Below are positions 1 through 35,960 of a stretch of 35,960 bases of DNA, piece by piece (positions within the stretch are counted from its first letter, which is position 1; each line of letters opens with the position of its first letter). A program made the translations under genes and the position numbers. Origin of the DNA: a virus; the IMG/VR virus record IMGVR_UViG_3300009648_000002, positions 1 to 35,960 of that record. One strand, 5' to 3'. The notes below the pieces were generated by a model, which saw nothing but the letters and a program-made list of their open reading frames with translations, was not told where the DNA came from and did not search any database.

Positions 1-123
1 AAAGTATTACAACAAACCATACACAAAAAAGGTGCACATCAAGGCCCTTGTGAAGGAAACTATCAAATCAAAGACCCAAGATGGGGATCCTGTGAAAACA
101 CTCAAACTACTACTCGGCGACGA
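1..123. repeat. Terminal direct repeat, identical to 35838-35960 (circular genome overlap or terminal redundancy)
   Basis: The last 123 nt of the window match the first 123 nt base for base by visual alignment. Confidence 0.85.
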
Positions 124-1822
124 AAGAACAGATAAACTACTCAAATCTATTAAATCCTACAAACTAGACCCTGTCATCTCCATACCCTTCCATGGAGACA
201 GCGAAATCTATCTTGACGACAAGGACAACCGGGTGCTGCTCATTAAGACAATCAACATCAAGGGTAAATCAATCACAGAGGAAAGAATAGTCATAGACGC
301 CTACCCTGAAAGAATATCAATCTATGAATCCCCACTCCCAGGCGAAACACGACAAATCAAGATACAATGGATATCACCAACACAACAAAGATTCACGGAA
401 GGCCCAGCACCATTCGAATATCACATTGAAACACTCAAAGAATCAGGGCGTATATTCTATCACAACGTTTGCAGGGATGTCCTGGCCACCATAATAGGGT
501 GGATGGCCTACAAGGGAAACGCAGTGATTGAAAGGGGAGTTGACACACCCGGATTTTACTACAACGAGAACGAGGGAAAGATATACTCAGTCAAATATGA
601 TATCAAAGACGTCACCGCAGAGGATATCAAGGCATGTGCAGATCTACTCTCAAGTCTCTCAGAATACTTTGATGACCCTGTAAAGCTAGCAACAGTCCTG
701 AAATGGTGTATCATAGCACCATTCAATTATGTGCGTAAACAAGTCGGCGCCCCACTATTCCCCTACCTGTACCTCTATGGGGCTTCAGGTTCAGGGAAAA
801 CGAGCGTCGCGAGGATAGGTCAATACGTTTACACTTACCCCACAAGTGAAAACGATGTCGGAGGATCCAGCTTCGACACAGTAGCAAGGGTAGGTCATAG
901 GATCAGCCAATCAACATTCCCTATAATCATTAATGAACCAAAAGCCTGTTTTGATCGTCCCAGCACTGCTGAGATGATCAAGGTGATGGTCGAATCAACG
1001 ATAGGACGCGGGAGACATGAAGGTAAAGTATTCAAAAACATACCCAGCCTCTCACCAGTCATATTCACTTCAAACCATTACCTGCCACCAGATGACGCAT
1101 TACTGCGACGATTAGAGGTTATTAACTTCGTCCAGTCAGAGCGGAAGAATGATGAGGATTCGAAGGAGTTTAACGAGAAATTCAGGATTAACACGCCACA
1201 TAAGAGTCCGCTCATGGTTCTGAATAATCTTGGGGCATTCGCTGCCAGGGAGTTCATCGAGGACGTGGAGCTCTGCACAGATGATTGGAAGGCCGCTGCG
1301 AACAGTATCATCCTGAGATTCTATGCTGACGCTGGCCTGGAGCCTCCTGAGTGGTTGCTTGGCTGGTCAGAGACAGAGAGTCTTGAGGATGTGGACGATG
1401 ATATCAGGGAACAGGTGAGGATCTTCATTATGGAGCAGATCAACAATGAGGTCAGGAAGGCTAAATGGGTTGACAGTGAAGAATATAATGTTCAAAGGGA
1501 TCTTTCAGGGTCTTTCAGGGTCTCTTTCGCTGAGAAGGCTGAGAATGTCCTGTTGAATGGACTTATACCCTATATGGTCTTACATGAGGGGTATAAGGGG
1601 CGGCGTGTTGTATTTACAGGAGGTTTTAAGGATGCTGTGAACAGGGCGCTTGGTCTGTCGTTGACGTTGAAAGGCCTCTCTGACATCCTGGGTGAGGAAT
1701 GGATGTATGGTTCTGTCAAGGTGTCAGGGAGGGTGATGAAGTGTATGCATATCTGTTTTGATGAGTTTGTTAAGTTTGTTGATTTAAGTGAAATCATGTT
1801 AGAAAAAGAGGAGGATTTTTAG
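32..1822 (+). CDS. Replication protein with SF3-helicase-type NTPase domain; true start is at 35698 across the junction (~653 aa in full)
   Basis: Walker A LYLYGASGSGKTS, Walker B-like FPIIINEP and motif C IFTSNHY at SF3-like spacing; frame is open and continuous with the ORF starting at ATG 35698. Confidence 0.6.
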   Translation: MHIKALVKETIKSKTQDGDPVKTLKLLLGDERTDKLLKSIKSYKLDPVISIPFHGDSEIYLDDKDNRVLLIKTINIKGKSITEERIVIDAYPERISIYESPLPGETRQIKIQWISPTQQRFTEGPAPFEYHIETLKESGRIFYHNVCRDVLATIIGWMAYKGNAVIERGVDTPGFYYNENEGKIYSVKYDIKDVTAEDIKACADLLSSLSEYFDDPVKLATVLKWCIIAPFNYVRKQVGAPLFPYLYLYGASGSGKTSVARIGQYVYTYPTSENDVGGSSFDTVARVGHRISQSTFPIIINEPKACFDRPSTAEMIKVMVESTIGRGRHEGKVFKNIPSLSPVIFTSNHYLPPDDALLRRLEVINFVQSERKNDEDSKEFNEKFRINTPHKSPLMVLNNLGAFAAREFIEDVELCTDDWKAAANSIILRFYADAGLEPPEWLLGWSETESLEDVDDDIREQVRIFIMEQINNEVRKAKWVDSEEYNVQRDLSGSFRVSFAEKAENVLLNGLIPYMVLHEGYKGRRVVFTGGFKDAVNRALGLSLTLKGLSDILGEEWMYGSVKVSGRVMKCMHICFDEFVKFVDLSEIMLEKEEDF

Positions 1823-1834
1823 GTGAACCTAAGA

Positions 1835-2119
1835 GGTAACCTGAAGGTAACCCAAAGTAACCTCAACCATGAGGTTACCTTTAGAGGCCTGGAGAGCCTT
1901 TTTTTCAGTAAAAAGGAGTTCTCTGCGATTTCCGAAAAAGGTAACCTGAACCTGAGGGGTGATACCCTATACTCAGAAAAAACTGGTCAAACCCTTAAGT
2001 TACCTTGGTTACCAAGTTACCTTTTATATATGGGTTACCAAAGTTACTTTGGTTACTTTTCCTCAGAATCCTCAGATAACCCGGAAACCCATCAAAACCC
2101 ATCAAAACCCCGGGTTACC
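1835..2119. repeat. Iteron-like array of at least 11 (G)GTWAC(C) motifs, putative replication origin
   Basis: GGTAACC/GGTTACC copies at 1835, 1846, 1857, 1873, 1940, 1999, 2007, 2016, 2033, 2043, 2051 and 2113; also a tandem acccatcaaa x2 at about 2090-2110 and a T7 run at 1899-1905; sits directly downstream of the Rep gene. Confidence 0.5.
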
Positions 2120-2159: not shown

Positions 2160-2453
2160 ATGAGAAATGATAAAAATGAGAGATTGTGGAACTTTAAGGA
2201 ATTAACCCACTACCTCGGCTACTCCATAAAAGTCAAACCCACCCTAGAAAAACTCGCTAAAAAGAAATACAGAGTCAGCCTAGCCGTCCTCGAAGAATTC
2301 CAGCCACACTTCACACCCACCACAGGTGGAATGAGCCAGACAACCATCGAAATAGGAATATACAGGACAAGGACAGAGTCAATCAAAAAGATCAAAGAGA
2401 TAATCGACACAATAACCATAGAAGACCTCCTCATAGGAGGGATGAAGCAGTGA
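2160..2453 (+). CDS. Hypothetical protein (97 aa)
   Basis: ORF with an RBS-like sequence; its stop overlaps the GTG start of the next gene. Confidence 0.45.
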   Translation: MRNDKNERLWNFKELTHYLGYSIKVKPTLEKLAKKKYRVSLAVLEEFQPHFTPTTGGMSQTTIEIGIYRTRTESIKKIKEIIDTITIEDLLIGGMKQ

Positions 2454-3214
2454 AAACCATAAGACTCACAACCGACAACCCAGCAGGCTTGCACAGCATA
2501 ACACACATGCTGACACAGATAAACGTCGACATTGCCACCATCCACGCCACACCAGAGGCCCTGACACTCGAAGGCATGGACGGGTCACACATCATCTACT
2601 ACAACATCAGGATCACACCAGACTTCTTCACAGACTACAAAGTCCCAGAGAACGAGGAACTATCAGTCCCAGTCGAAGAACTCAACAACATCCTCAAACT
2701 CACAGGGAGAAACAACACAATCACAATCACCAACCATACAGATGACGAGGAGAACACCACGTCCCTCATCGTCACCAGGTCCACAGAGAGAGACGAAACA
2801 AGGTTCACAATACTCTGCCCTGACATAGAATACGCCACCCCAACAGTCGACATGGGCACATTCGAATTAAATGCGACGATCACAGTCAACACAGACATGA
2901 TCACGTCATTCTTCAAAGACGCGGCCCTCACATCCTCTGACGCGATCGAGATCAAAGTCGATGAAGACTACCTGTACCTCATGACACCTGAGGATTACAA
3001 TGGATTCCATGTCATGTCCCGGCAGGGGCATGGTGAGAAAGTCTATGGGGAGTACTTAAGCCAATTCACGATAGAGAAACTCAAACCACTTATCCTCGAC
3101 GGATTTGAGACCGTTACAATCCACGTGGACAACGAGAAACCAATTAAATTAGAGTACTCAGACATTGGGGTTAGAGCGAACCTTCTCCTGGCCCCACGGA
3201 TCATAGGAGAATAA
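2450..3214 (+). CDS. pcn: DNA polymerase sliding clamp (PCNA) homolog
   Basis: 254 aa, typical PCNA length; C-terminal RANLLLAPRIIGE matches the archaeal PCNA C-terminus (compare P. furiosus ...RLTFLLAPRVEE); GTG start preceded by ggaggg. Confidence 0.7.
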   Translation: MKTIRLTTDNPAGLHSITHMLTQINVDIATIHATPEALTLEGMDGSHIIYYNIRITPDFFTDYKVPENEELSVPVEELNNILKLTGRNNTITITNHTDDEENTTSLIVTRSTERDETRFTILCPDIEYATPTVDMGTFELNATITVNTDMITSFFKDAALTSSDAIEIKVDEDYLYLMTPEDYNGFHVMSRQGHGEKVYGEYLSQFTIEKLKPLILDGFETVTIHVDNEKPIKLEYSDIGVRANLLLAPRIIGE

Positions 3215-3230: not shown

Positions 3231-3800
3231 GTGACAACAGTCCACATCAACACAAACGTGAAACTAAGACGCAGAAACCTTAAAAACGCCGTCCTATACA
3301 TCGTCGATAAATACGGGGATGAGATAGGCCTCTCAAGTGATGGTGTCTGTGAAAAAATCATCGAGGAGGGTCTGATGCACAGTAGATCCTCCCCGACCAG
3401 GAAGATGGTAGCATACACGCTCTCACAACTGAAACGTGAGGGTATGGTGAGGGTGGATAACACTACGAGGGGTCCGAGATTCACCCTGGAACCACACGTC
3501 AATGTTCAAGTCCATCAAAGCCCCGCGCCCAGGACTATCTGGGCGGAATTATACATGGAAACCATCCAAGCCCTCAAAGTCTCTGACGAACCTCTCACAA
3601 CCCATGAACTCTTCGAAGTCGTGACAGATAACGGTGAATACAAGGGATATCATCTCACTGAAGAGGAGTATGTGACGAGGGTCATATCACCCCTCTCCTG
3701 TCAGGGTTATCTTATGGAGATAGATGAACCTGAGAGGTGCGCCAGGTGTTGGGGATACCGTGAGAATGGATTCAAAACAAGCAATGAGAGGATGAGTTGA
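3231..3800 (+). CDS. Putative DNA-binding protein with two winged-helix-like segments
   Basis: Segments such as MVAYTLSQLKREGMVRV resemble wHTH recognition helix plus wing; GTG start. Confidence 0.4.
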   Translation: MTTVHINTNVKLRRRNLKNAVLYIVDKYGDEIGLSSDGVCEKIIEEGLMHSRSSPTRKMVAYTLSQLKREGMVRVDNTTRGPRFTLEPHVNVQVHQSPAPRTIWAELYMETIQALKVSDEPLTTHELFEVVTDNGEYKGYHLTEEEYVTRVISPLSCQGYLMEIDEPERCARCWGYRENGFKTSNERMS

Positions 3801-4393
3801 CGGTGATGCTCATGAAATCTGTTGAATTCGCGTCTAAAGAATGGTGGGAGCTGAACAAGAGAGAGTCAAAGAAGATCGAGGACTCAATAATCAGGCTGAG
3901 GAAGGAGGGGTATAAATACGATGAAATCTCTGATGCTCTTAAAGTAAGCAGACAGCGTGTATGGAGAACCCTGTCAAGGCAGGGTTTAGTCCATAATTCA
4001 AGAGATATGGAGGAGATCAGGGCGAATGTTCACAGGCTCTACACGTTGGGGTACACTATACCTGAAATCGCTGCGACTGTTAAGATCAGTAAGAGGTGTG
4101 TGCGTCAACTTGTCAATAAAATTGAATACCCGTACAGGTGGCGTGTAAACCAGGAAGGGAGATTCATGAAGGTGGGATGGGAGCATCCCCGCCCCTTCAC
4201 CATCTTTGAGCTCCATAAAGCCTACAAGCTACACGTTGAGGAGGGGTGGAGTATCCTGAAGCTCATGAAGATCCTCGGTGGCGGATACATGACTGTCAGG
4301 AGGTACATACAAGCATATGGTGCAGGGGAACTCGATGAGGTCTGGGAGGCCTATGATAGGTATCATCGGGGCGGTGACGGTGTTCCTGGATGA
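3797..4393 (+). CDS. HTH-domain protein, putative transcription regulator
   Basis: Two HTH-like segments (YDEISDALKVSRQRVWRTL and YTIPEIAATVKISKRCVRQLV); start overlaps the upstream stop. Confidence 0.45.
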   Translation: MTVMLMKSVEFASKEWWELNKRESKKIEDSIIRLRKEGYKYDEISDALKVSRQRVWRTLSRQGLVHNSRDMEEIRANVHRLYTLGYTIPEIAATVKISKRCVRQLVNKIEYPYRWRVNQEGRFMKVGWEHPRPFTIFELHKAYKLHVEEGWSILKLMKILGGGYMTVRRYIQAYGAGELDEVWEAYDRYHRGGDGVPG

Positions 4394-4412
4394 TTAGATG
4401 ATTTTTCATCGT

Positions 4413-4435
4413 TATAGACATATATAGCGAAGTAT
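4413..4435 (+). promoter_or_regulatory. Putative archaeal promoter (TATA-like element plus conserved 14-mer atatagcgaagtat)
   Basis: tatagacatatatagcgaagtat is 19/23 identical to the motif at 10741-10763; both lie 10-14 nt upstream of an operon start codon. Confidence 0.4.
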
Positions 4436-4448
4436 GGGGAGTGGATAT

Positions 4449-4772
4449 ATGATATACATAGTTACACGGCATCAGAGCACTGTTAACTGGATTAAGGCTA
4501 AACTGAATGGTAAAGGCCTTGACCGGGACGTCTTCGTCGCAGGGCATCTCAGTGATCAGATGATCCTGCAGATGAAGAAGGGTGATGCTGTCTACGGCAT
4601 CCTCCCCATCCACCTCATCAAGAGGTTGCTCCGTAAGGGTGTGGATTATTATCATATGGTCCTACCCGATGTCCCTGAGGAATTCAGGGGTAAGGAGTTG
4701 AGTCTTGAGCAGGTGAAAGCGTTTGGAGGTCAAATATGGAAAATTAGGGATATTGATTGTGTTGAAGTATAA
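4449..4772 (+). CDS. Small protein (107 aa), possible Csx16/VVA1548-like CRISPR-associated (ring-nuclease-like) protein; identity uncertain
   Basis: Start at ATG 4449, in frame with the track ORF from 4434; motifs IVTRH and GILPIHL recall Csx16-family proteins from memory only. Confidence 0.35.
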   Translation: MIYIVTRHQSTVNWIKAKLNGKGLDRDVFVAGHLSDQMILQMKKGDAVYGILPIHLIKRLLRKGVDYYHMVLPDVPEEFRGKELSLEQVKAFGGQIWKIRDIDCVEV

Positions 4773-4799
4773 AAAAAGAAAAAATAGGTTATAGGTGGC

Positions 4800-4985
4800 T
4801 CACCGATCCCGAGGAATAACCCTCCACCGGCCCAAGACGAGGGCCTTCTGGAGGGCCGTGAATTCCTCGGGAGTGATGTCATACTCCCTGAGGAACTCAT
4901 CAAGGGACATCTTGTCCACTATTTCGTGTCTGTTCAAGGTCATCCCAAGAATATGGGATAACCTGAACCTTTTCTCTGTACTCAT
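4800..4985 (-). CDS. Hypothetical small protein (61 aa)
   Basis: Minus-strand ORF preceded by gaggtgagatag-ATG, the RBS pattern used elsewhere in this genome. Confidence 0.45.
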   Translation of the reverse strand: MSTEKRFRLSHILGMTLNRHEIVDKMSLDEFLREYDITPEEFTALQKALVLGRWRVIPRDR

Positions 4986-5004
4986 CTATCTCACCTCAAT
5001 AAAA

Positions 5005-5148
5005 CTACACTATCCTCTTCACCCTGATCTCGAGGAGGACAGCTTCATCATCCTTCATGCCGAGTGCTTCCCTGACGGCTATGGGGATTGATATCCTCCC
5101 CTGCCTGTCAGGTTTGGCGGTGAAGGTGAACTCAGTCACCTTCACCAC
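5005..5148 (-). CDS. AbrB/SpoVT (MazE-like) swapped-hairpin domain protein, 47 aa; sub-threshold gene absent from the ORF track
   Basis: Minus-frame translation VVKVTEFTFTAKPDRQGRISIPIAVREALGMKDDEAVLLEIRVKRIV fits the AbrB/MazE core pattern (GRISIP...RE.LG...D); GTG start preceded by a GAGG-like RBS; overlaps the 3' end of the acidic-protein gene. Confidence 0.45.
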   Translation of the reverse strand: MVKVTEFTFTAKPDRQGRISIPIAVREALGMKDDEAVLLEIRVKRIV

Positions 5149-6438: not shown

Positions 6439-6702
6439 CTACCTCACCTCATTTTCTTGTGGGGTTCAGGTGTTTTCACCTGTACCCCGTTGAGTGTATT
6501 CTGTTGGAGGGAGTATATAAATGTTTTCCTCCCTCCACCTATACACTCCATGATATACCTTATTCTGGATACTAATATATATACTTTTCTATTCCTCGTT
6601 TACTTTTAATAGCAGAACAAAAAGAGACTAAAACATGAAACTCAGCACAATGTACGCTAAAGCAACAAAAAAAGAACTAAGACCAGGAAAAGAACAAGGA
6701 AC
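6439..6702. promoter_or_regulatory. Divergent AT-rich intergenic region with TATA-like boxes for the leftward and rightward operons
   Basis: AT-rich with tatataaa and aatatatatac elements between oppositely oriented gene blocks. Confidence 0.4.
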
Positions 6703-7411: not shown

Positions 7412-7759
7412 ATGACTGATGAGAAGACTGAAAACGCCCTCGCAAAGTGCCTTGCGATGACGTATAGGAACATTGAATGGAAGAAAGTTGGTGTGAAATC
7501 AGCGTACACATACTTCACAGACCGTGTGCGCGCAGCAAGCCGCATGAGCACCATCACATCCTTCCTAGAAGAACTAAACAGGATGTGCGGTGTCAGCTTC
7601 ACCCAGCACAGCCTCAAAGACATAAACACACTCAAAGAGAACGAAGACGAAGCCCTGAACCTACTCAGACATGAGACAAACTACGCAGTCCTACTCGCCC
7701 TGGAAGTTGTTGAGAAACTCAAAATGAAGAAAGCAGAGGATGAAGGTGATGAAGTATGA
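7412..7759 (+). CDS. Small alpha-helical protein (115 aa) immediately upstream of the RAMP gene
   Basis: ATG 7412 preceded by ggaggagg; stop overlaps the RAMP start (ATGA). Confidence 0.45.
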   Translation: MTDEKTENALAKCLAMTYRNIEWKKVGVKSAYTYFTDRVRAASRMSTITSFLEELNRMCGVSFTQHSLKDINTLKENEDEALNLLRHETNYAVLLALEVVEKLKMKKAEDEGDEV

Positions 7760-8601
7760 GGACTGTTAAGTACCCTGGAGTGTTAACTGCCCGGACACCT
7801 ATCCATCACGGCGGCCCTGAAGTCTATGGGACGATAAAACCCATACTCACACTCCCCACACTCATAGAGGATGAGAAGGGGATGAGGGTTGAGGACGTCC
7901 CCTACATCCATGGGAATGCGATCAGGGGGTACCTCCGCCGCCTGGTCATGCAGGACTTCCTGGATCAACTCGATTATGACCTCAAATCAGCGAAGATCTA
8001 CCATTTTCTCTTCACAGGGGGCCTCCTGGAGGCTAACACAAAATCCTCTGGTATGATTGACGTGAAACTCAAATCAGGGATCCGCAAGTACATCCCACCA
8101 GCAAGTCTCTGGGGTTCTGCCCTGGGCAATCAGATGATCCAGGGCAAATTGAAGGTGGACCTTGCAGAACCGATCTGCAAGGAACTTTACTGGCAGCAGA
8201 AACAGTACTGTGACATCGATGGCCCTTCAAGTTATTCCCTGAAGGCGAGGGACTTCGGGACCCGCCTTGATAGTCTCAGGGAGTACAAGGAGGACAGAGA
8301 GGATGGAGAGCAGGCGACGCAGATGAAGTACGAGTTCGAAGTCATCGTGAAGGGTGCGAAGTTCTATCATGAATTCACACTCACAGACACTGACCCTGTT
8401 GAGGAATCATGTTTCATCCGGGCATTGAACCTGTGGAGCGAACGCCCCTACCTCGGGGGGAAGAGCGGTTCAGGGTACGGGAAACTGGATATCCGCTATG
8501 ACTATGACCCTGATGCTGAGGCAACATACCTCTCGTATGTCGAGGAGAAGGCTGACCTGATCAGAGAGTTTCTTGATGAATTACAGGCAAACTGGCGATG
8601 A
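7756..8601 (+). CDS. RAMP-superfamily protein, Cas7-like (type III Csm3/Cmr4/Cmr6-like)
   Basis: Three RAMP hallmarks in canonical order: N-terminal TPIHHGG, central VPYIHGNAIRGYLRR (compare PYIPGSSLKG.LR) and a C-terminal glycine-rich loop YLGGKSGSGYGKL; 281 aa. Confidence 0.55.
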   Translation: MRTVKYPGVLTARTPIHHGGPEVYGTIKPILTLPTLIEDEKGMRVEDVPYIHGNAIRGYLRRLVMQDFLDQLDYDLKSAKIYHFLFTGGLLEANTKSSGMIDVKLKSGIRKYIPPASLWGSALGNQMIQGKLKVDLAEPICKELYWQQKQYCDIDGPSSYSLKARDFGTRLDSLREYKEDREDGEQATQMKYEFEVIVKGAKFYHEFTLTDTDPVEESCFIRALNLWSERPYLGGKSGSGYGKLDIRYDYDPDAEATYLSYVEEKADLIREFLDELQANWR

Positions 8602-10769: not shown

Positions 10770-11294
10770 GTGATGATGAAGGGTGAGGAAGAGAAGCACA
10801 GGGAAGCATACGACCATTACCTCGCCCACATTGAGGCAGGATACACAAAGACGGCGAGCGTCAAAGAAACAGCCAGAAGGATAGGGGTCTCCGAGGCAAC
10901 AGTCTGGAACTGGAAGAGACGCTTCCACTGGGATGAGAAACAGGCGATAGACAGCTACGAGATCAAAGAGACGTTCAAGGAAAGGAATCATGAGATCATC
11001 ATAGACTTCAAGACCAAATACCTCGCATTCCTCAATGACCTCATCGACCAGGCGATAGAGGAATTCCGTGAGGGCCGGGGCGTCGTCATGATACGTGATG
11101 TTGGGGACCTGGAACGAGTGATTAAAGTTGCCCTCCTCCTCCAGGGCGAGGCAACAAGCAGGACTGAGAGCAGCGTCCTGCAAGTGAACCGTGAAAAGAT
11201 AGAAGATTATGAGGAATACTTCAGAGAATTAGAGGAGGAATTTGGGGCGGGGGACGCTGAGGATGAGAATCAAGGTGCGGAGGGGATTTACTGA
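10770..11294 (+). CDS. terS: Putative terminase small subunit (HTH DNA-binding)
   Basis: HTH-like RIGVSEATVWNWKRR; position immediately upstream of and overlapping the large terminase gene. Confidence 0.5.
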   Translation: MMMKGEEEKHREAYDHYLAHIEAGYTKTASVKETARRIGVSEATVWNWKRRFHWDEKQAIDSYEIKETFKERNHEIIIDFKTKYLAFLNDLIDQAIEEFREGRGVVMIRDVGDLERVIKVALLLQGEATSRTESSVLQVNREKIEDYEEYFRELEEEFGAGDAEDENQGAEGIY

Positions 11295-12618
11295 TGCGGA
11301 GAAAGACTTCCTCACTGAGACAGTCCTTAAAAACCCTTACATTCCACATAAACCATTCCTTAAGCAGGCGATATTCCTCACCAGACTCGACAGGGAACTG
11401 CTCTATGGTGGTCAGGCGGGGGGTGGGAAATCTGACGCTCTCCTCATGGCAGCCCTCCAATATGTCATGTACCCGGATTATCATGCACTCTTACTTAGGA
11501 GGACTTACAAGGAATTAGCCCTTCCAGGTGCCCTTATGGATCGTGCGGATGAATGGTTAACACCTACAGATGCTGAGTGGGTCGCGGAGAACAAGACATG
11601 GGAATTCCCATCAGGAGCAACCCTCACCTTCGGTTACCTTGAGCATGAGCGGGATAAACACCGATACCAGTCCTCAGAGTTCCAGTTCATAGGCTTTGAT
11701 GAGCTCACAGAGTTCCAAGAGTCACAGTACACATTCCTATTCAGTAGGAACAGGAAGACAGAGGACAACCCCGTCCCCTTGAGGACAAGGGCTGCGACGA
11801 ACCCTGGAGGCGTGGGCCATGAATGGGTGAAAAGACGATTCATTGAAGGCCCAGCACCATTCCTTCCATCCAGTTACACTGAAAACCCTTACCTTGACGC
11901 ATCATATGAGGAAAGCCTTGATCTCCTCGACCCGATCACCCGACGCCAACTTAAATATGGTGATTGGTCCGCGACGATAGAGGGGAGGATCTTCACTGAG
12001 GATATCCTTGATTACTATGATGAGCCGCCGACACCAGAACAGACACGTCTTGCAGTCAGGTACTGGGACCTTGCAGCCACACCTGACAGGAATGATGACT
12101 CAATAAGTGGCGGTGCGGATTGGACGGTCGGGGCCCTCCTACTCCTTGACGACTCCGGAGGCCTCTACCTTGAGGATATCATCCGATTCAGGCTTTCACC
12201 CGCGGAGGCTGAGGATATGATCATTCAAACGATCCGTAACGACTTTCAAGTTTATAGGGAGAAATACATGGCGCGGGCTGAACTGGAGGGAGGAGCCTCT
12301 GCAAGGTATGTGATGGAATCCCTCCGCAGACGCCTGGCTGGGGTGAACTTTGACGGATCCCCTGTCCAGGGTAAAAGTAAACTAGATAGGGCCAGAGCGT
12401 TGATCCCAGCATTCAGGACATCCCAGTTAAGGCTTAAGAGGGATGCTCCATGGCTCTACACATTCACGAGGGAACTCCTCGCATTCCCATCAACTGGTGT
12501 TCATGATGACCAGGTCGACGCCCTCAGCGGGGCCTACCTCCAGGTCGCTGACTTAACATCAGGGGATCCGTATGGGGCTTCAGGTAGGCGGTATAAAGGT
12601 TATGGGGTGACATATTGA
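11242..12618 (+). CDS. terL: Terminase large subunit
   Basis: Walker A-like LYGGQAGGGKSDALL near the N-terminus; C-terminal nuclease-type motif HDDQVDAL; followed by portal; start may be ATG 11263. Confidence 0.7.
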   Translation: MGRGTLRMRIKVRRGFTDAEKDFLTETVLKNPYIPHKPFLKQAIFLTRLDRELLYGGQAGGGKSDALLMAALQYVMYPDYHALLLRRTYKELALPGALMDRADEWLTPTDAEWVAENKTWEFPSGATLTFGYLEHERDKHRYQSSEFQFIGFDELTEFQESQYTFLFSRNRKTEDNPVPLRTRAATNPGGVGHEWVKRRFIEGPAPFLPSSYTENPYLDASYEESLDLLDPITRRQLKYGDWSATIEGRIFTEDILDYYDEPPTPEQTRLAVRYWDLAATPDRNDDSISGGADWTVGALLLLDDSGGLYLEDIIRFRLSPAEAEDMIIQTIRNDFQVYREKYMARAELEGGASARYVMESLRRRLAGVNFDGSPVQGKSKLDRARALIPAFRTSQLRLKRDAPWLYTFTRELLAFPSTGVHDDQVDALSGAYLQVADLTSGDPYGASGRRYKGYGVTY

Positions 12619-32070: not shown

Positions 32071-32805
32071 ATGATGAAGAAGGAGTACAGGTTAGATGAA
32101 TTCCTGGATATGAAGCGTCGCTGGGAGGCCTTCAGAATCCAGAAGGGCAGAAAACCTAACTACGTGACTGATAAGGCGGGTGAAAAGATCCCAAGAGACG
32201 TGTTTAATGATATGCTACTAAGATATGAACGCTTCGTTGCACTCAACCATAGAGATCCAGCCCTCATCAAAGTGAAGGGTAATACTGCTGATGACGGGTG
32301 GGTTACCACTGGGTATTTCCAGCAGGACTATCAGGACACGGATCACACCTGCGGCCCCAGCAGCCTCCAGATGGCTCTCTCTGCCCTTGAGTGCAAGATA
32401 TCGGAGTCGGAGTTAACAAAGGCGGCTGGGACAACATTGAAGGGAACAGACCATAAAGGTATGTTGAAGGCTATCACTTATGCAGCGAATAAGTGTAAAA
32501 AGAAACTTAAAGCCGAATTTAAAAAATTCAAGGCAATAGGATGGGATTCGATCATTAAACACGTTGAGGGTGGCGGGGAAGTCATAATACACCTTGTCAC
32601 CCGGCCAGGCCTTGACACGGATGTGAATGGTCGAGTGGTCTGGCGTGGAGCATTCGGTCACTATGTCTACCTCGTCGGCGTGAACAGGAAGAAGGGAGTG
32701 GTGAGGATAGCTGACCCAACGAAGGGGATTCGAGAGTTCACTCAAGGACAAGTAGTTCAGGCGATAAATAACCTGTCACAACCCAGCATACTCCTAATAA
32801 AGTAG
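32071..32805 (+). CDS. Papain-like (C39-like) cysteine peptidase, candidate cell-wall peptidase/lysin
   Basis: Q...DHTCGPSSLQMALSAL (Gln, then Cys in a CG.xSL context) with downstream GHYVYLVG...RIADPTKG (His, Asp), as in the peptidase C39 arrangement. Confidence 0.5.
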   Translation: MMKKEYRLDEFLDMKRRWEAFRIQKGRKPNYVTDKAGEKIPRDVFNDMLLRYERFVALNHRDPALIKVKGNTADDGWVTTGYFQQDYQDTDHTCGPSSLQMALSALECKISESELTKAAGTTLKGTDHKGMLKAITYAANKCKKKLKAEFKKFKAIGWDSIIKHVEGGGEVIIHLVTRPGLDTDVNGRVVWRGAFGHYVYLVGVNRKKGVVRIADPTKGIREFTQGQVVQAINNLSQPSILLIK

Positions 32806-35697: not shown

Positions 35698-35960
35698 ATG
35701 AACTTCAAAGAAGCCCTGAAGGACAACTACTTCTCATCAGGACTAGACACAGAGGACTTCATCATCGCAGTCACACAACTCGCGCGCGACCATAACATCC
35801 CAGAAACAGACATAACCAATGCCTTAATACCCATAAAAAAGTATTACAACAAACCATACACAAAAAAGGTGCACATCAAGGCCCTTGTGAAGGAAACTAT
35901 CAAATCAAAGACCCAAGATGGGGATCCTGTGAAAACACTCAAACTACTACTCGGCGACGA
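35698..35960 (+). CDS. 5' part of the Rep gene, continuing in frame across the repeat into 1-1822
   Basis: ATG 35698 preceded by ggggtg; open frame reads MNFKEALKDNYF... through the terminal repeat with no stop. Confidence 0.5.
   Translation, partial: MNFKEALKDNYFSSGLDTEDFIIAVTQLARDHNIPETDITNALIPIKKYYNKPYTKKVHIKALVKETIKSKTQDGDPVKTLKLLLGD

Follow-up and report, generated by a model that had tools for sequence, protein, structure and literature searches.

Staphylococcal pathogenicity island (SaPI) origins consist of 6-12 penta- or hexanucleotide iterons that lie directly 3′ of rep and are read by the winged-helix C-terminal domain (CTD) of Rep, the iteron sequence differing among islands and matching the cognate Rep (PMC9371898). 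The phage P4 alpha protein is a primase-helicase with a C-terminal winged-helix origin-binding domain, and in the Sulfolobus plasmid pRN1 the first ~170 bp downstream of the orf904 stop contain, after a terminator, an essential cis element, which is a ~100-nt stem-loop and, as the authors state, has no iterons (PMC4234260). A new Rep/helicase by a repeat-rich putative origin was put forward by Soler et al. and Badel et al. for the t26-22p/pORA1-pTIK4 RepA family, which belongs to plasmids of Thermococcales and Sulfolobus; the origins were predicted by GC skew and dot plots (that of pT26-2 upstream of rep), and the terminal domains were described as without detectable similarity (PMC2926602, PMC6972569). 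Here we analyse a viral stretch of 35,960 nucleotides (IMG/VR record IMGVR_UViG_3300009648_000002, positions 1 to 35,960; called the window below), in which an array of short repeats at 1835-2119 follows the gene for a Rep protein, and we consider it likely that this array serves the adjacent rep gene as its cognate iteron set and, most probably, as its replication origin. An earlier inspection of the letters alone (the sequence-only reading) had favoured an origin with Rep-binding sites, and this is the reading best supported by the present comparisons: a conserved plan beside Rep, joint switching of repeat core and CTD, and a predicted initiator-helicase fold. We know of no replication origin defined for any tailed methanogen virus, and met none in the publications searched; nor do these describe these iterons, their frame or the domain that would read them.

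The array is far denser than chance allows. GTWAC cores number 12 in 1835-2119 against 0.28 expected from the rate outside the region (0.98 per kb; Poisson P 4e-16), and the runner-up 285-bp window in the genome has 4. Of the longer GGTWACC the window has 10 copies, where 100 shuffles averaged 3.2 per genome, and 7 of the 10 fall inside the region (starts 1835, 1846, 1873, 1940, 2007, 2033 and 2113), so that the motif is not equally frequent elsewhere. At least 11 copies, far above chance and just downstream of the Rep gene, had been claimed, and both points stand: the first of the 12 pentamers begins 13 nt past the rep stop codon. The individual sites are, however, not palindromic as had been supposed but asymmetric pentamers, each having a polarity because its central base is A or T. 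With cores starting at 1836, 1847, 1857, 1874, 1941, 1999, 2008, 2016, 2034, 2043, 2052 and 2114, the top-strand order is three GTAAC, one GTTAC, one GTAAC and six GTTAC, then one extra GTTAC, and the start-to-start steps up to the last of the six are 11, 10, 17, 67, 58, 9, 8, 18, 9 and 9 nt. The close spacing that had been noticed is real, although it involves two triplets (steps 9, 8 and 9, 9) rather than pairs, and these are the sole 5-mer triples with an 8/9-bp period in the whole genome. As a geometric remark only, a period of 8-9 bp rotates successive sites by ~275-310 degrees round the helix, which is near the 300 called for by six-fold symmetry. The parts of the array are, in order:

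1835-1879: module A, with direct iterons GTAAC at 1836, 1847 and 1857 (steps 11, 10) and an inverted GTTAC at 1874 (step 17).
1883-1907, plus strand: short GC stem (GGCC..GGCC-like) then T7, comprising a terminator-like scan match at 1883-1901 and the T-run.
1940-1946: single iteron GGTAACC, core at 1941, pointing the way the direct sites of module A do, at a step of 67 nt from the inverted site and of 58 nt to B1.
1947-1997: spacer whose conserved blocks, seen in an anchored comparison of 30 loci, are CTG(G) right behind the single site, a G+C-rich patch, CCCTATAC and an A-run.
1998-2021: triplet B1, AGTTACC, GGTTACC and AGTTACC, cores at 1999, 2008 and 2016 (steps 9, 8), of polarity opposite to the module A direct sites.
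2021-2032, plus strand: A/T-rich gap CTTTTATATATG, containing TTTATATA, between B1 and B2.
2033-2057: triplet B2, GGTTACC, AGTTACT and GGTTACT, cores at 2034, 2043 and 2052 (steps 9, 9).
2087-2106, plus strand: tandem ACCCATCAAA x2, replaced by ACCCACAAAAAAGATGTTAA in the two closest relatives (L003 and L028).
2113-2119: extra iteron GGTTACC, 62 nt after B2, kept in L003 and L028 but outside the general plan.

The tandem ACCCATCAAA had also been pointed out; it is there, but its relevance is doubtful, since it is absent from L003 and L028 and hence is probably an incidental duplication. Both this tandem and the TCCTCAGAA repeats were dropped as candidate functional parts, neither being kept in the closest relatives. 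Taken as 2087-2110, the tandem resembles the iteron CATCAACCC of the virus Drs3 (see below) plus two extra A's, a likeness that may be coincidence or a relic of another iteron type.

The same plan recurs among relatives, for which we fetched 99 related loci and examined flanks of 3-4 kb. In 15 of the first 19 viral loci having downstream DNA, 7-12 GTWAC lie within 400 nt after the rep stop, the motif occurring elsewhere at 0.7-2.4 per kb; in an unbiased 5-mer enrichment, GTAAC was the top-enriched 5-mer in 54 of 85 loci scored. In ~30 non-redundant relatives, with Reps no more than 33-50% identical, the plan comes directly after the rep stop and agrees to within 1-2 nt, and across 33 non-redundant regions the layout is near-invariant, the steps being 11, 9-10, 16-17 (to the inverted site), 67-70, 57-59, 8, 8, ~18, 8 and 8 nt. 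Two triplets at an 8-9 bp period are present in every GTWAC-type relative, and the step between them is most frequently 18 nt, as it is in the window between the last B1 and the first B2 core. In the cultured Methanobacterium virus Drs3 (L100, MH674343; 3200-3450) the same frame stands as 4+1 / 1 / 3+3 after ORF11, built on a core of quite another sequence, TCAACC/GGTTGA, with steps of 11, 11, 10, 14, 69, 56, 9, 9, 18, 9 and 9. HAV2 and the Sulfolobus plasmid pORA1, in which a same-family Rep is followed by repeats of their own (TTCTTAC; GCTACAA) and a very AT-rich tract, carry looser versions of the plan. None of the four public records checked (Drs3, vir080, HAV2 and pORA1) annotates an origin at the array position, and Rep is labelled 'hypothetical protein' in those of Drs3 and vir080 and 'primase/DNA polymerase' in those of HAV2 and pORA1.

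Polarity, too, is constant. Relative to the triplets, the single site points the other way in 30/30 loci, as do the direct sites of module A in 24/24, and the inverted site of that module points the same way in 24/24; the two triplets agree with each other in 32/32 GTWAC-type regions. The top-strand central base of the triplets is T in 15 of these regions and A in 17, and because polarity stays constant while this base varies, the centre is evidently read and the sites are asymmetric. The simplest account keeps the polarity frame constant and makes the central base a position of specificity; 'global flips' of site orientation between genomes, which we had entertained, were rejected in favour of such a change of central base. 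A reverse search of IMG/VR for three GTAAC at an 8-bp period, a gap and three more returned 41 stretches. Of these, 17 have a Rep gene at a distance of 150-255 nt, and another belongs to the L005 contig, which is cut off ahead of its rep; the other 23 include 20 uninterrupted tandem octamer satellites, many in giant-virus bins. The last three, closely similar stretches from the contigs L137, L138 and L144, are arrays of 7 GTTAC units (gttaccatgttacactgttacatgagttacaatgttacaat...) at irregular spacing, in fetched DNA that contained no Rep homologue, and may be a different replicon with a similar core.

The two open reading frames (ORFs) overlapping the array (1823-2155 and 1959-2159) had been thought artefacts, and the comparisons support this. 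Were the region a real gene, with the repeats encoding a repetitive peptide, the open frame +0 of ORF 1823-2155 in the window, L003 and L028 would be in its favour, but an open frame is uninformative in three sequences without indels. Against L028, rep differs by codon position at 33/13/152 sites (137 synonymous and 38 non-synonymous codons), as opposed to 12/11/8 (2 synonymous, 18 non-synonymous) for the array ORF. No family match was found for it in profile databases, tblastn detected it only in near-identical genomes, even where the adjoining orf97 was detectable, and the sites stand in both orientations. ORF 1823-2155 thus does not evolve as a gene, and a protein-coding explanation of the repeats is highly improbable. 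None of the 38 substitutions relative to L003 (P 0.0005) and none of the 31 relative to L028 (P 0.002) falls in the 60 core nucleotides, which argues for purifying selection on the pentamers themselves; as a protein, the region is not conserved in relatives.

The pentamer itself changes from clade to clade at the same place, with GTAAT, GTCAC, GTTAA, GTAAG, GCTAC, GACAC and others as clade-specific cores. If every core is written the way the direct sites of module A point, the window uses GTAAC, L005 GTTAC, L052 GTCAC and L082/L089 GTGAC; the outer base is changed in GTAAT (L017, L034, L037 and L071) and GTTAA (L038), and larger core changes (GTAAG, GCTAC, GACAC) are found in other clades. In each of six switch lineages the nearest Rep relative is GTAAC-type, at 61-98% identity, and since each lineage is nested among GTAAC-type Reps the switches are independent events. 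GGTNACC and GTNAC are BstEII-type and MaeIII-type specificities, and a cluster of host restriction sites without structural role had been offered as an alternative; but the core becomes GTAAT, GTTAA, TCAACC and so on in relatives while number, polarity and spacing are kept, and we regard this as the least probable explanation of those considered here.

The protein encoded next to the array is of a kind expected to start replication. The relevant coding stretches are:

35698-35837 joined to 1-1822 across the circular junction, plus strand: full rep gene, 653 amino acids with Walker A GASGSGKT, from the ORF list and the circular join.
1-1822, plus strand: 3′ part of rep, predicted D5/Cch-like initiator-helicase.
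1496-1819, plus strand: region coding for the Rep CTD (residues ~546-653), predicted to be winged-helix-like with the order H-bb-H-H-bb.

Compared with Pfam, NCBIfam, PHROG and PDB sequences, Rep gave nothing past the P-loop. Its full-length AlphaFold2 model (predicted local distance difference test score 85) matched Cch (5dgk, E 5e-10), PriRep1 (7pds), poxvirus D5/E5, NrS-1 and SaPI5 (7ola) in Foldseek, all at probability 1.00, and the model thus gives Rep the fold of D5/Cch/SaPI self-loading initiator-helicases. In tblastn, Rep aligned with Drs3 (33%, E 6e-84), HAV2 (31%, E 3e-69), pORA1 (31% over 74% of the query, E 1e-48) and t26-22p of pT26-2 (E 3e-17), which by sequence places it in the t26-22p/pORA1 RepA helicase family. 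A large protein set held 58 homologues, mostly unnamed and several from uncultured Methanobrevibacter, and some are fused to PrimPol or zf-CHC2 primase domains. The winged-helix assignment of the CTD, made on the model, is of modest strength: a candidate recognition helix (LKGLSDIL) is followed by a predicted wing hairpin (SVKVSG-RVMKCMHI), and the best structural match is a winged helix-turn-helix (HTH) bound to an origin of transfer, the second being SaPIbov Rep.

Rep probably reads the sites with this C-terminal domain, as changes in core and CTD go together. One such case is a pair of rumen-type viral contigs, L017 (5560-5860) and L065 (2452-2750), whose Reps are ~98% identical and whose 58-nt spacers are identical, and in which all iterons compared differ at one and the same base, GTAAT versus GTAAC. 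Their folded CTDs differ solely by PILING versus PLKING in the wing strand, three more differences lying in the extreme C-terminal tail, and the pair looks like a natural retargeting of an initiator and its origin. More widely, the wing position is Lys or Arg in 39/39 GTAAC-type Reps and Leu, Phe, Asn or Gln in 4/5 lineages with a changed outer G:C (Fisher P 4e-5, phylogeny not corrected for); in the window it corresponds to Lys620 (nt 1718-1720). The GTCAC lineage L052 has Arg->Trp in the neighbouring strand, at the position where L034, the fifth of the lineages with a changed outer pair, has Lys->Met. In AlphaFold2 models the covarying residues map to the β-hairpin following the HTH.

The repeats might instead be bound by a protein other than Rep, such as the three-HTH Cbp1-like protein encoded in the window, a host factor, a partition protein or an integrase using arm sites, and their linkage to rep be positional. 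A protein with three HTHs encoded 1.7 kb downstream could in principle match triplets of sites, and in L031 (of the L002/L029/L030 lineage) ~650 nt of foreign DNA separates rep from the array. Yet Rep alone is common to the loci: among relatives, the three-HTH protein, orf189 and PCNA were limited to L003 and L028, and orf97 to these and L030, and the array is found in more than 50 lineages. Iteron changes moreover track Rep CTD changes, down to the ~98% identical pair, and none of the 27 ORFs scanned has a Pfam integrase domain. We therefore consider a reader other than Rep improbable, and the three-HTH protein, being absent from most relatives' flanks, was rejected as reader of the triplets. 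The L031 interval (4394-5070, in a lineage with ~50% Rep identity) is an insert of ~650 nt that separates the rep stop (+80 nt) from the GTAAC array and includes a stretch resembling a tRNA 3′ end, although ARAGORN found no tRNA at the junction; it may be an insertion or recombination scar.

Between the triplets lies the least stable duplex of the array. As a 14-mer, the A/T gap has a nearest-neighbour value of -12.5 (genome mean -18.2, sd 2.0), ranking 53 of 35,823 14-mers genome-wide, and 2021-2032 is our candidate for the site of first melting. The gap contains TTTATATA, which we take to be the archaeal TATA-box consensus and which occurs only three times in the genome, at 2023 and at 6521 and 35223, where it heads minus-strand operons. 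From the TATA box at 2023, transcription would be expected to start near 2050-2056, so that B2 would sit between the box and the start; it is likely the promoter of the orf97-PCNA genes. The sequence-only reading overlooked this promoter element, which lies inside the array in the window lineage. Since Rep bound to the triplets would cover both the transcription factor B recognition element (BRE) side and the expected start, the array in this lineage is probably also an operator gating orf97-PCNA.

These features raise the question of whether the array is solely a transcriptional operator/promoter, at which Rep or another regulator ends rep transcription and switches the downstream genes while replication starts elsewhere. 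Besides the consensus TATA placed exactly between the triplets, this would account for the terminator-like stem and T7 at 1883-1907, which likely terminate rep transcripts and have counterparts in oligo-T tracts at a comparable place in relatives, and for the ribosome-binding site of the next gene, ~20-30 nt after the second triplet in most relatives. Initiators of iteron plasmids, too, often repress transcription. The TATA box between the triplets is, however, not general, many relatives having gaps such as aaaaaacaagcaa; the downstream gene varies among relatives while array and Rep stay together, and the partner protein is a helicase. An operator, moreover, needs far less than twelve sites with two convergent junctions in a fixed 230-bp geometry, and in distant relatives (L075, L079, L082, L089, HAV2 and pORA1) the tandem iterons lie beside long, very AT-rich tracts with no adjacent gene start. 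We judge a purely transcriptional role unlikely, if the most serious of the alternatives, and retain the array as the probable origin.

The spacers of the array carry some conserved sequence and little structure. The 67-nt spacer has a semi-conserved GGAG block ~12 nt after module A, and in the spacer at 1947-1997 the AT fraction dips to 0.42-0.52 (background 0.65); its blocks could be matched in ~25 relatives as GTWAC-TTTTCTGG, the G+C-rich patch, CCCTATAC and the A-run ~25-35 nt before the first triplet. A conserved hairpin after the single site (GGGG/CCCC, GGTG/CACC; GGGT/ACCC in the window) was considered and rejected. RNAalifold gave no consensus pairs in the region downstream of rep, local stems were no longer than in shuffles (best average 3.5 bp versus 3.26), and a search for known RNA families produced a single sub-threshold chance match. 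As a single strand the whole region folds strongly (z -4.1), which the inverted iteron copies account for.

From these observations we infer how the system could work. The Rep CTD would bind each asymmetric pentamer, 5′-GTAAC-3′ in the window virus, with one subunit per site, a docking proposed by analogy with SaPI Reps. The 12 sites (three direct, one inverted, one single and 3+3 of opposite polarity) would fix the geometry of the Rep subunits, helicase rings would assemble at the A/T tract CTTTTATATATG between the triplets, melt the DNA and start replication, and module A with the single site, of opposite polarity, would set the direction or load a second ring. Viral PCNA and host enzymes would take over after initiation. 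Rep occupancy would also control orf97-PCNA transcription, the A/T tract being the TATA box in the window lineage.

Several observations weigh against an origin read by Rep. The window clade is without a long AT-rich unwinding element (AT 0.7-0.8, background 0.65), and the A/T gap is only ~11 bp. The covariation between residue and base is not a clean code: L034 keeps Arg at the wing position, with Lys->Met in the neighbouring strand, and the GTAAG clade also keeps Arg there. L021 has a Rep (33% identity) and no array within 4 kb. As the relatives' flanks span 3-4 kb, another DNA-binding protein encoded elsewhere could be involved, and GC skew lends no support to an origin at the array. Finally, the next gene starts ~20-30 nt after the second triplet in most relatives and a TATA box lies inside the window array, which leaves some room for a role in transcription only. 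In L021 (5605 onward), the gene right behind rep is the small Cys-rich one (CYYSSG..C.H..YCIFN) that in other relatives comes after the array.

The window assembles as a circle of 35,837 bp, its ends overlapping by 123 nt. It encodes small and large terminase subunits (TerS and TerL), a Mu-like portal, a tail tube and a tape-measure-sized ORF as well as a pseudomurein-binding C39 peptidase, and these genes mark it as a siphovirus-like virus of a pseudomurein-walled methanogen (Methanobacteriales). The array occupies the 337-nt gap between the rep stop codon and orf97 (start 2160). Other features mentioned here are:

2160-2453, plus strand: orf97, from the ORF list, the first gene downstream of the array.
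2450-3214, plus strand: PCNA homologue (PCNA_N match, E 3e-9).
3797-4393: three-HTH protein of 198 amino acids, with three tandem HTH_23-like repeats, 1.7 kb downstream of the array.
10770-12618: TerS and TerL, ~9 kb from the array.
32071-32805: pseudomurein-binding repeat and C39 peptidase (PeiW/PeiP-like endoisopeptidase).

The PeiW/PeiP-like gene points to a Methanobacteriales host, and 50% G+C would suit Methanothermobacter or Methanobacterium better than Methanobrevibacter. The best NCBIfam match of the three-HTH protein is the CRISPR repeat-binding protein Cbp1 (E 1e-11, under the curated cut-off). Two genes of CRISPR-associated type, at 4434-4772 and 7756-8601 (Cas_VVA1548 family, E 4e-29; RAMP superfamily, E 4e-8), may be a counter-defence or co-opted cas module. 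No DNA similarity to deposited phages was found in the first 6 kb of the window.

The position of the terminase genes bears on the other alternative that had been proposed, a packaging (pac/cos) site recognised by terminase. Terminase small subunits bind short repeated sites, and the assembly has its 123-nt terminal overlap, though this overlap comes from assembling a circular or permuted genome. TerS and TerL are ~9 kb distant, the array follows rep in all contexts, including plasmids and other elements (pORA1, HAV2), and its sequence co-varies with Rep, so that a role in packaging is very unlikely.

Cumulative GC skew has its minimum at ~6.5 kb and its maximum at ~33.5 kb. These are the points where gene orientation flips, so the skew reflects the coding strand rather than replication, and we rejected it as an origin marker. 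The region 6440-6700 is a divergent promoter region between a minus-strand block (ends 6438) and plus-strand genes (from 6703). There an inverted repeat TGGAGGGAG / CTCCCTCCA (6505-6537) flanks a consensus TATA box, the genome's least stable DNA lies at 6568-6585, and iterons are absent from the 6.44-6.70 kb intergenic region, which looks like an operator or switch.

If the array is the origin of its rep gene, a large group of methanogen viruses from gut, rumen and digester, together with some plasmids and viruses of hyperthermophiles, acquires an assigned origin and initiator. The locus would also provide a compact protein-DNA recognition rule testable in one cultured system (Drs3, Methanobacterium formicicum), as well as candidate rep-plus-origin cassettes for Methanobacteriales shuttle vectors, of which few exist. 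More tentatively, and with somewhat less confidence than doubt, we suggest as one joint proposal that tailed methanogen viruses (Drs3-like Anaerodiviridae and human-gut and rumen Methanobrevibacter viruses), and in looser form HAV2 and pORA1, share a distinct origin design. Twelve one-subunit sites would stand in a rigid 3+1 / 1 / 3+3 frame in which the 5-bp core is a simple address open to evolution; specificity groups would be set by the outer base pair together with the central base (A, T, C or G), and one or two wing residue changes would retarget the initiator, as in L017/L065. If so, core switching would yield mutually orthogonal replicons among co-infecting viruses, and tunable origin/initiator pairs for methanogen genetic tools.

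How the locus compares with described systems can now be set out. It shares with classical iteron plasmids (RepA/pi/TrfA) and Orc1/Cdc6-ORB (origin recognition box) origins the repeated sites, here putative, for an initiator, the easily melted tract and the nearby initiator gene. Classical iterons are, however, 17-22 bp long, in helical phase and bound by WH1-WH2 initiators, whereas those of the window are 5 bp at an 8-9 bp period; classical and Orc1 initiators load a separate helicase, and here the initiator would itself be the helicase. Rep has no Pfam or NCBIfam match, Orc1/Cdc6 models included, and its predicted fold is D5/Cch-like; the pentamer is presumably unlike ORB.

With the t26-22p/pORA1 family, homology extends across the P-loop core and the C-terminal region, as judged from sequence, but the studies of that family define no iterons, plan or reading domain, unlike the present analysis. 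Like the window, pRN1 is an archaeal element; its Rep combines a helicase core with a C-terminal winged helix, to which the predicted domains of window Rep would correspond, and its origin lies where the probable origin of the window does. PrimPol-fused members exist in the window Rep family; in place of the large conserved stem-loop of pRN1, however, the window has iterons and no significant conserved hairpin. P4 alpha recognises short repeated octamers at its origin, and P4 differs by a bacterial-type primase, two separated cis elements (ori and crr), another repeat and the absence of a 3+1 / 1 / 3+3 plan.

The closest likeness in organisation is to SaPIs, in which an SF3/MCM-like (SF3, superfamily 3) helicase-initiator, which window Rep resembles by predicted fold alone, has 6-12 short iterons directly downstream of its gene (12 pentamers in the window) and an A/T-rich stretch among the iterons; SaPI5 and PriRep1 are among the Rep fold matches. 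The window system differs in belonging to an archaeal tailed virus and in showing no detectable sequence similarity. Its layout differs as well: in SaPIs a central AT-rich region has half of the iterons to either side, at least two in each half pointing in opposite directions, whereas the ~11-bp gap of the window lies between triplets that share one polarity (3+3), the opposing sites standing in a separate module 58-130 nt upstream at rigid steps of 67-70 and 57-59 nt. By analogy, the window system may work like SaPI and P4-alpha origins with a different layout, and if so the SaPI/P4-type origin of a self-loading helicase extends to archaea with another arrangement of its sites.

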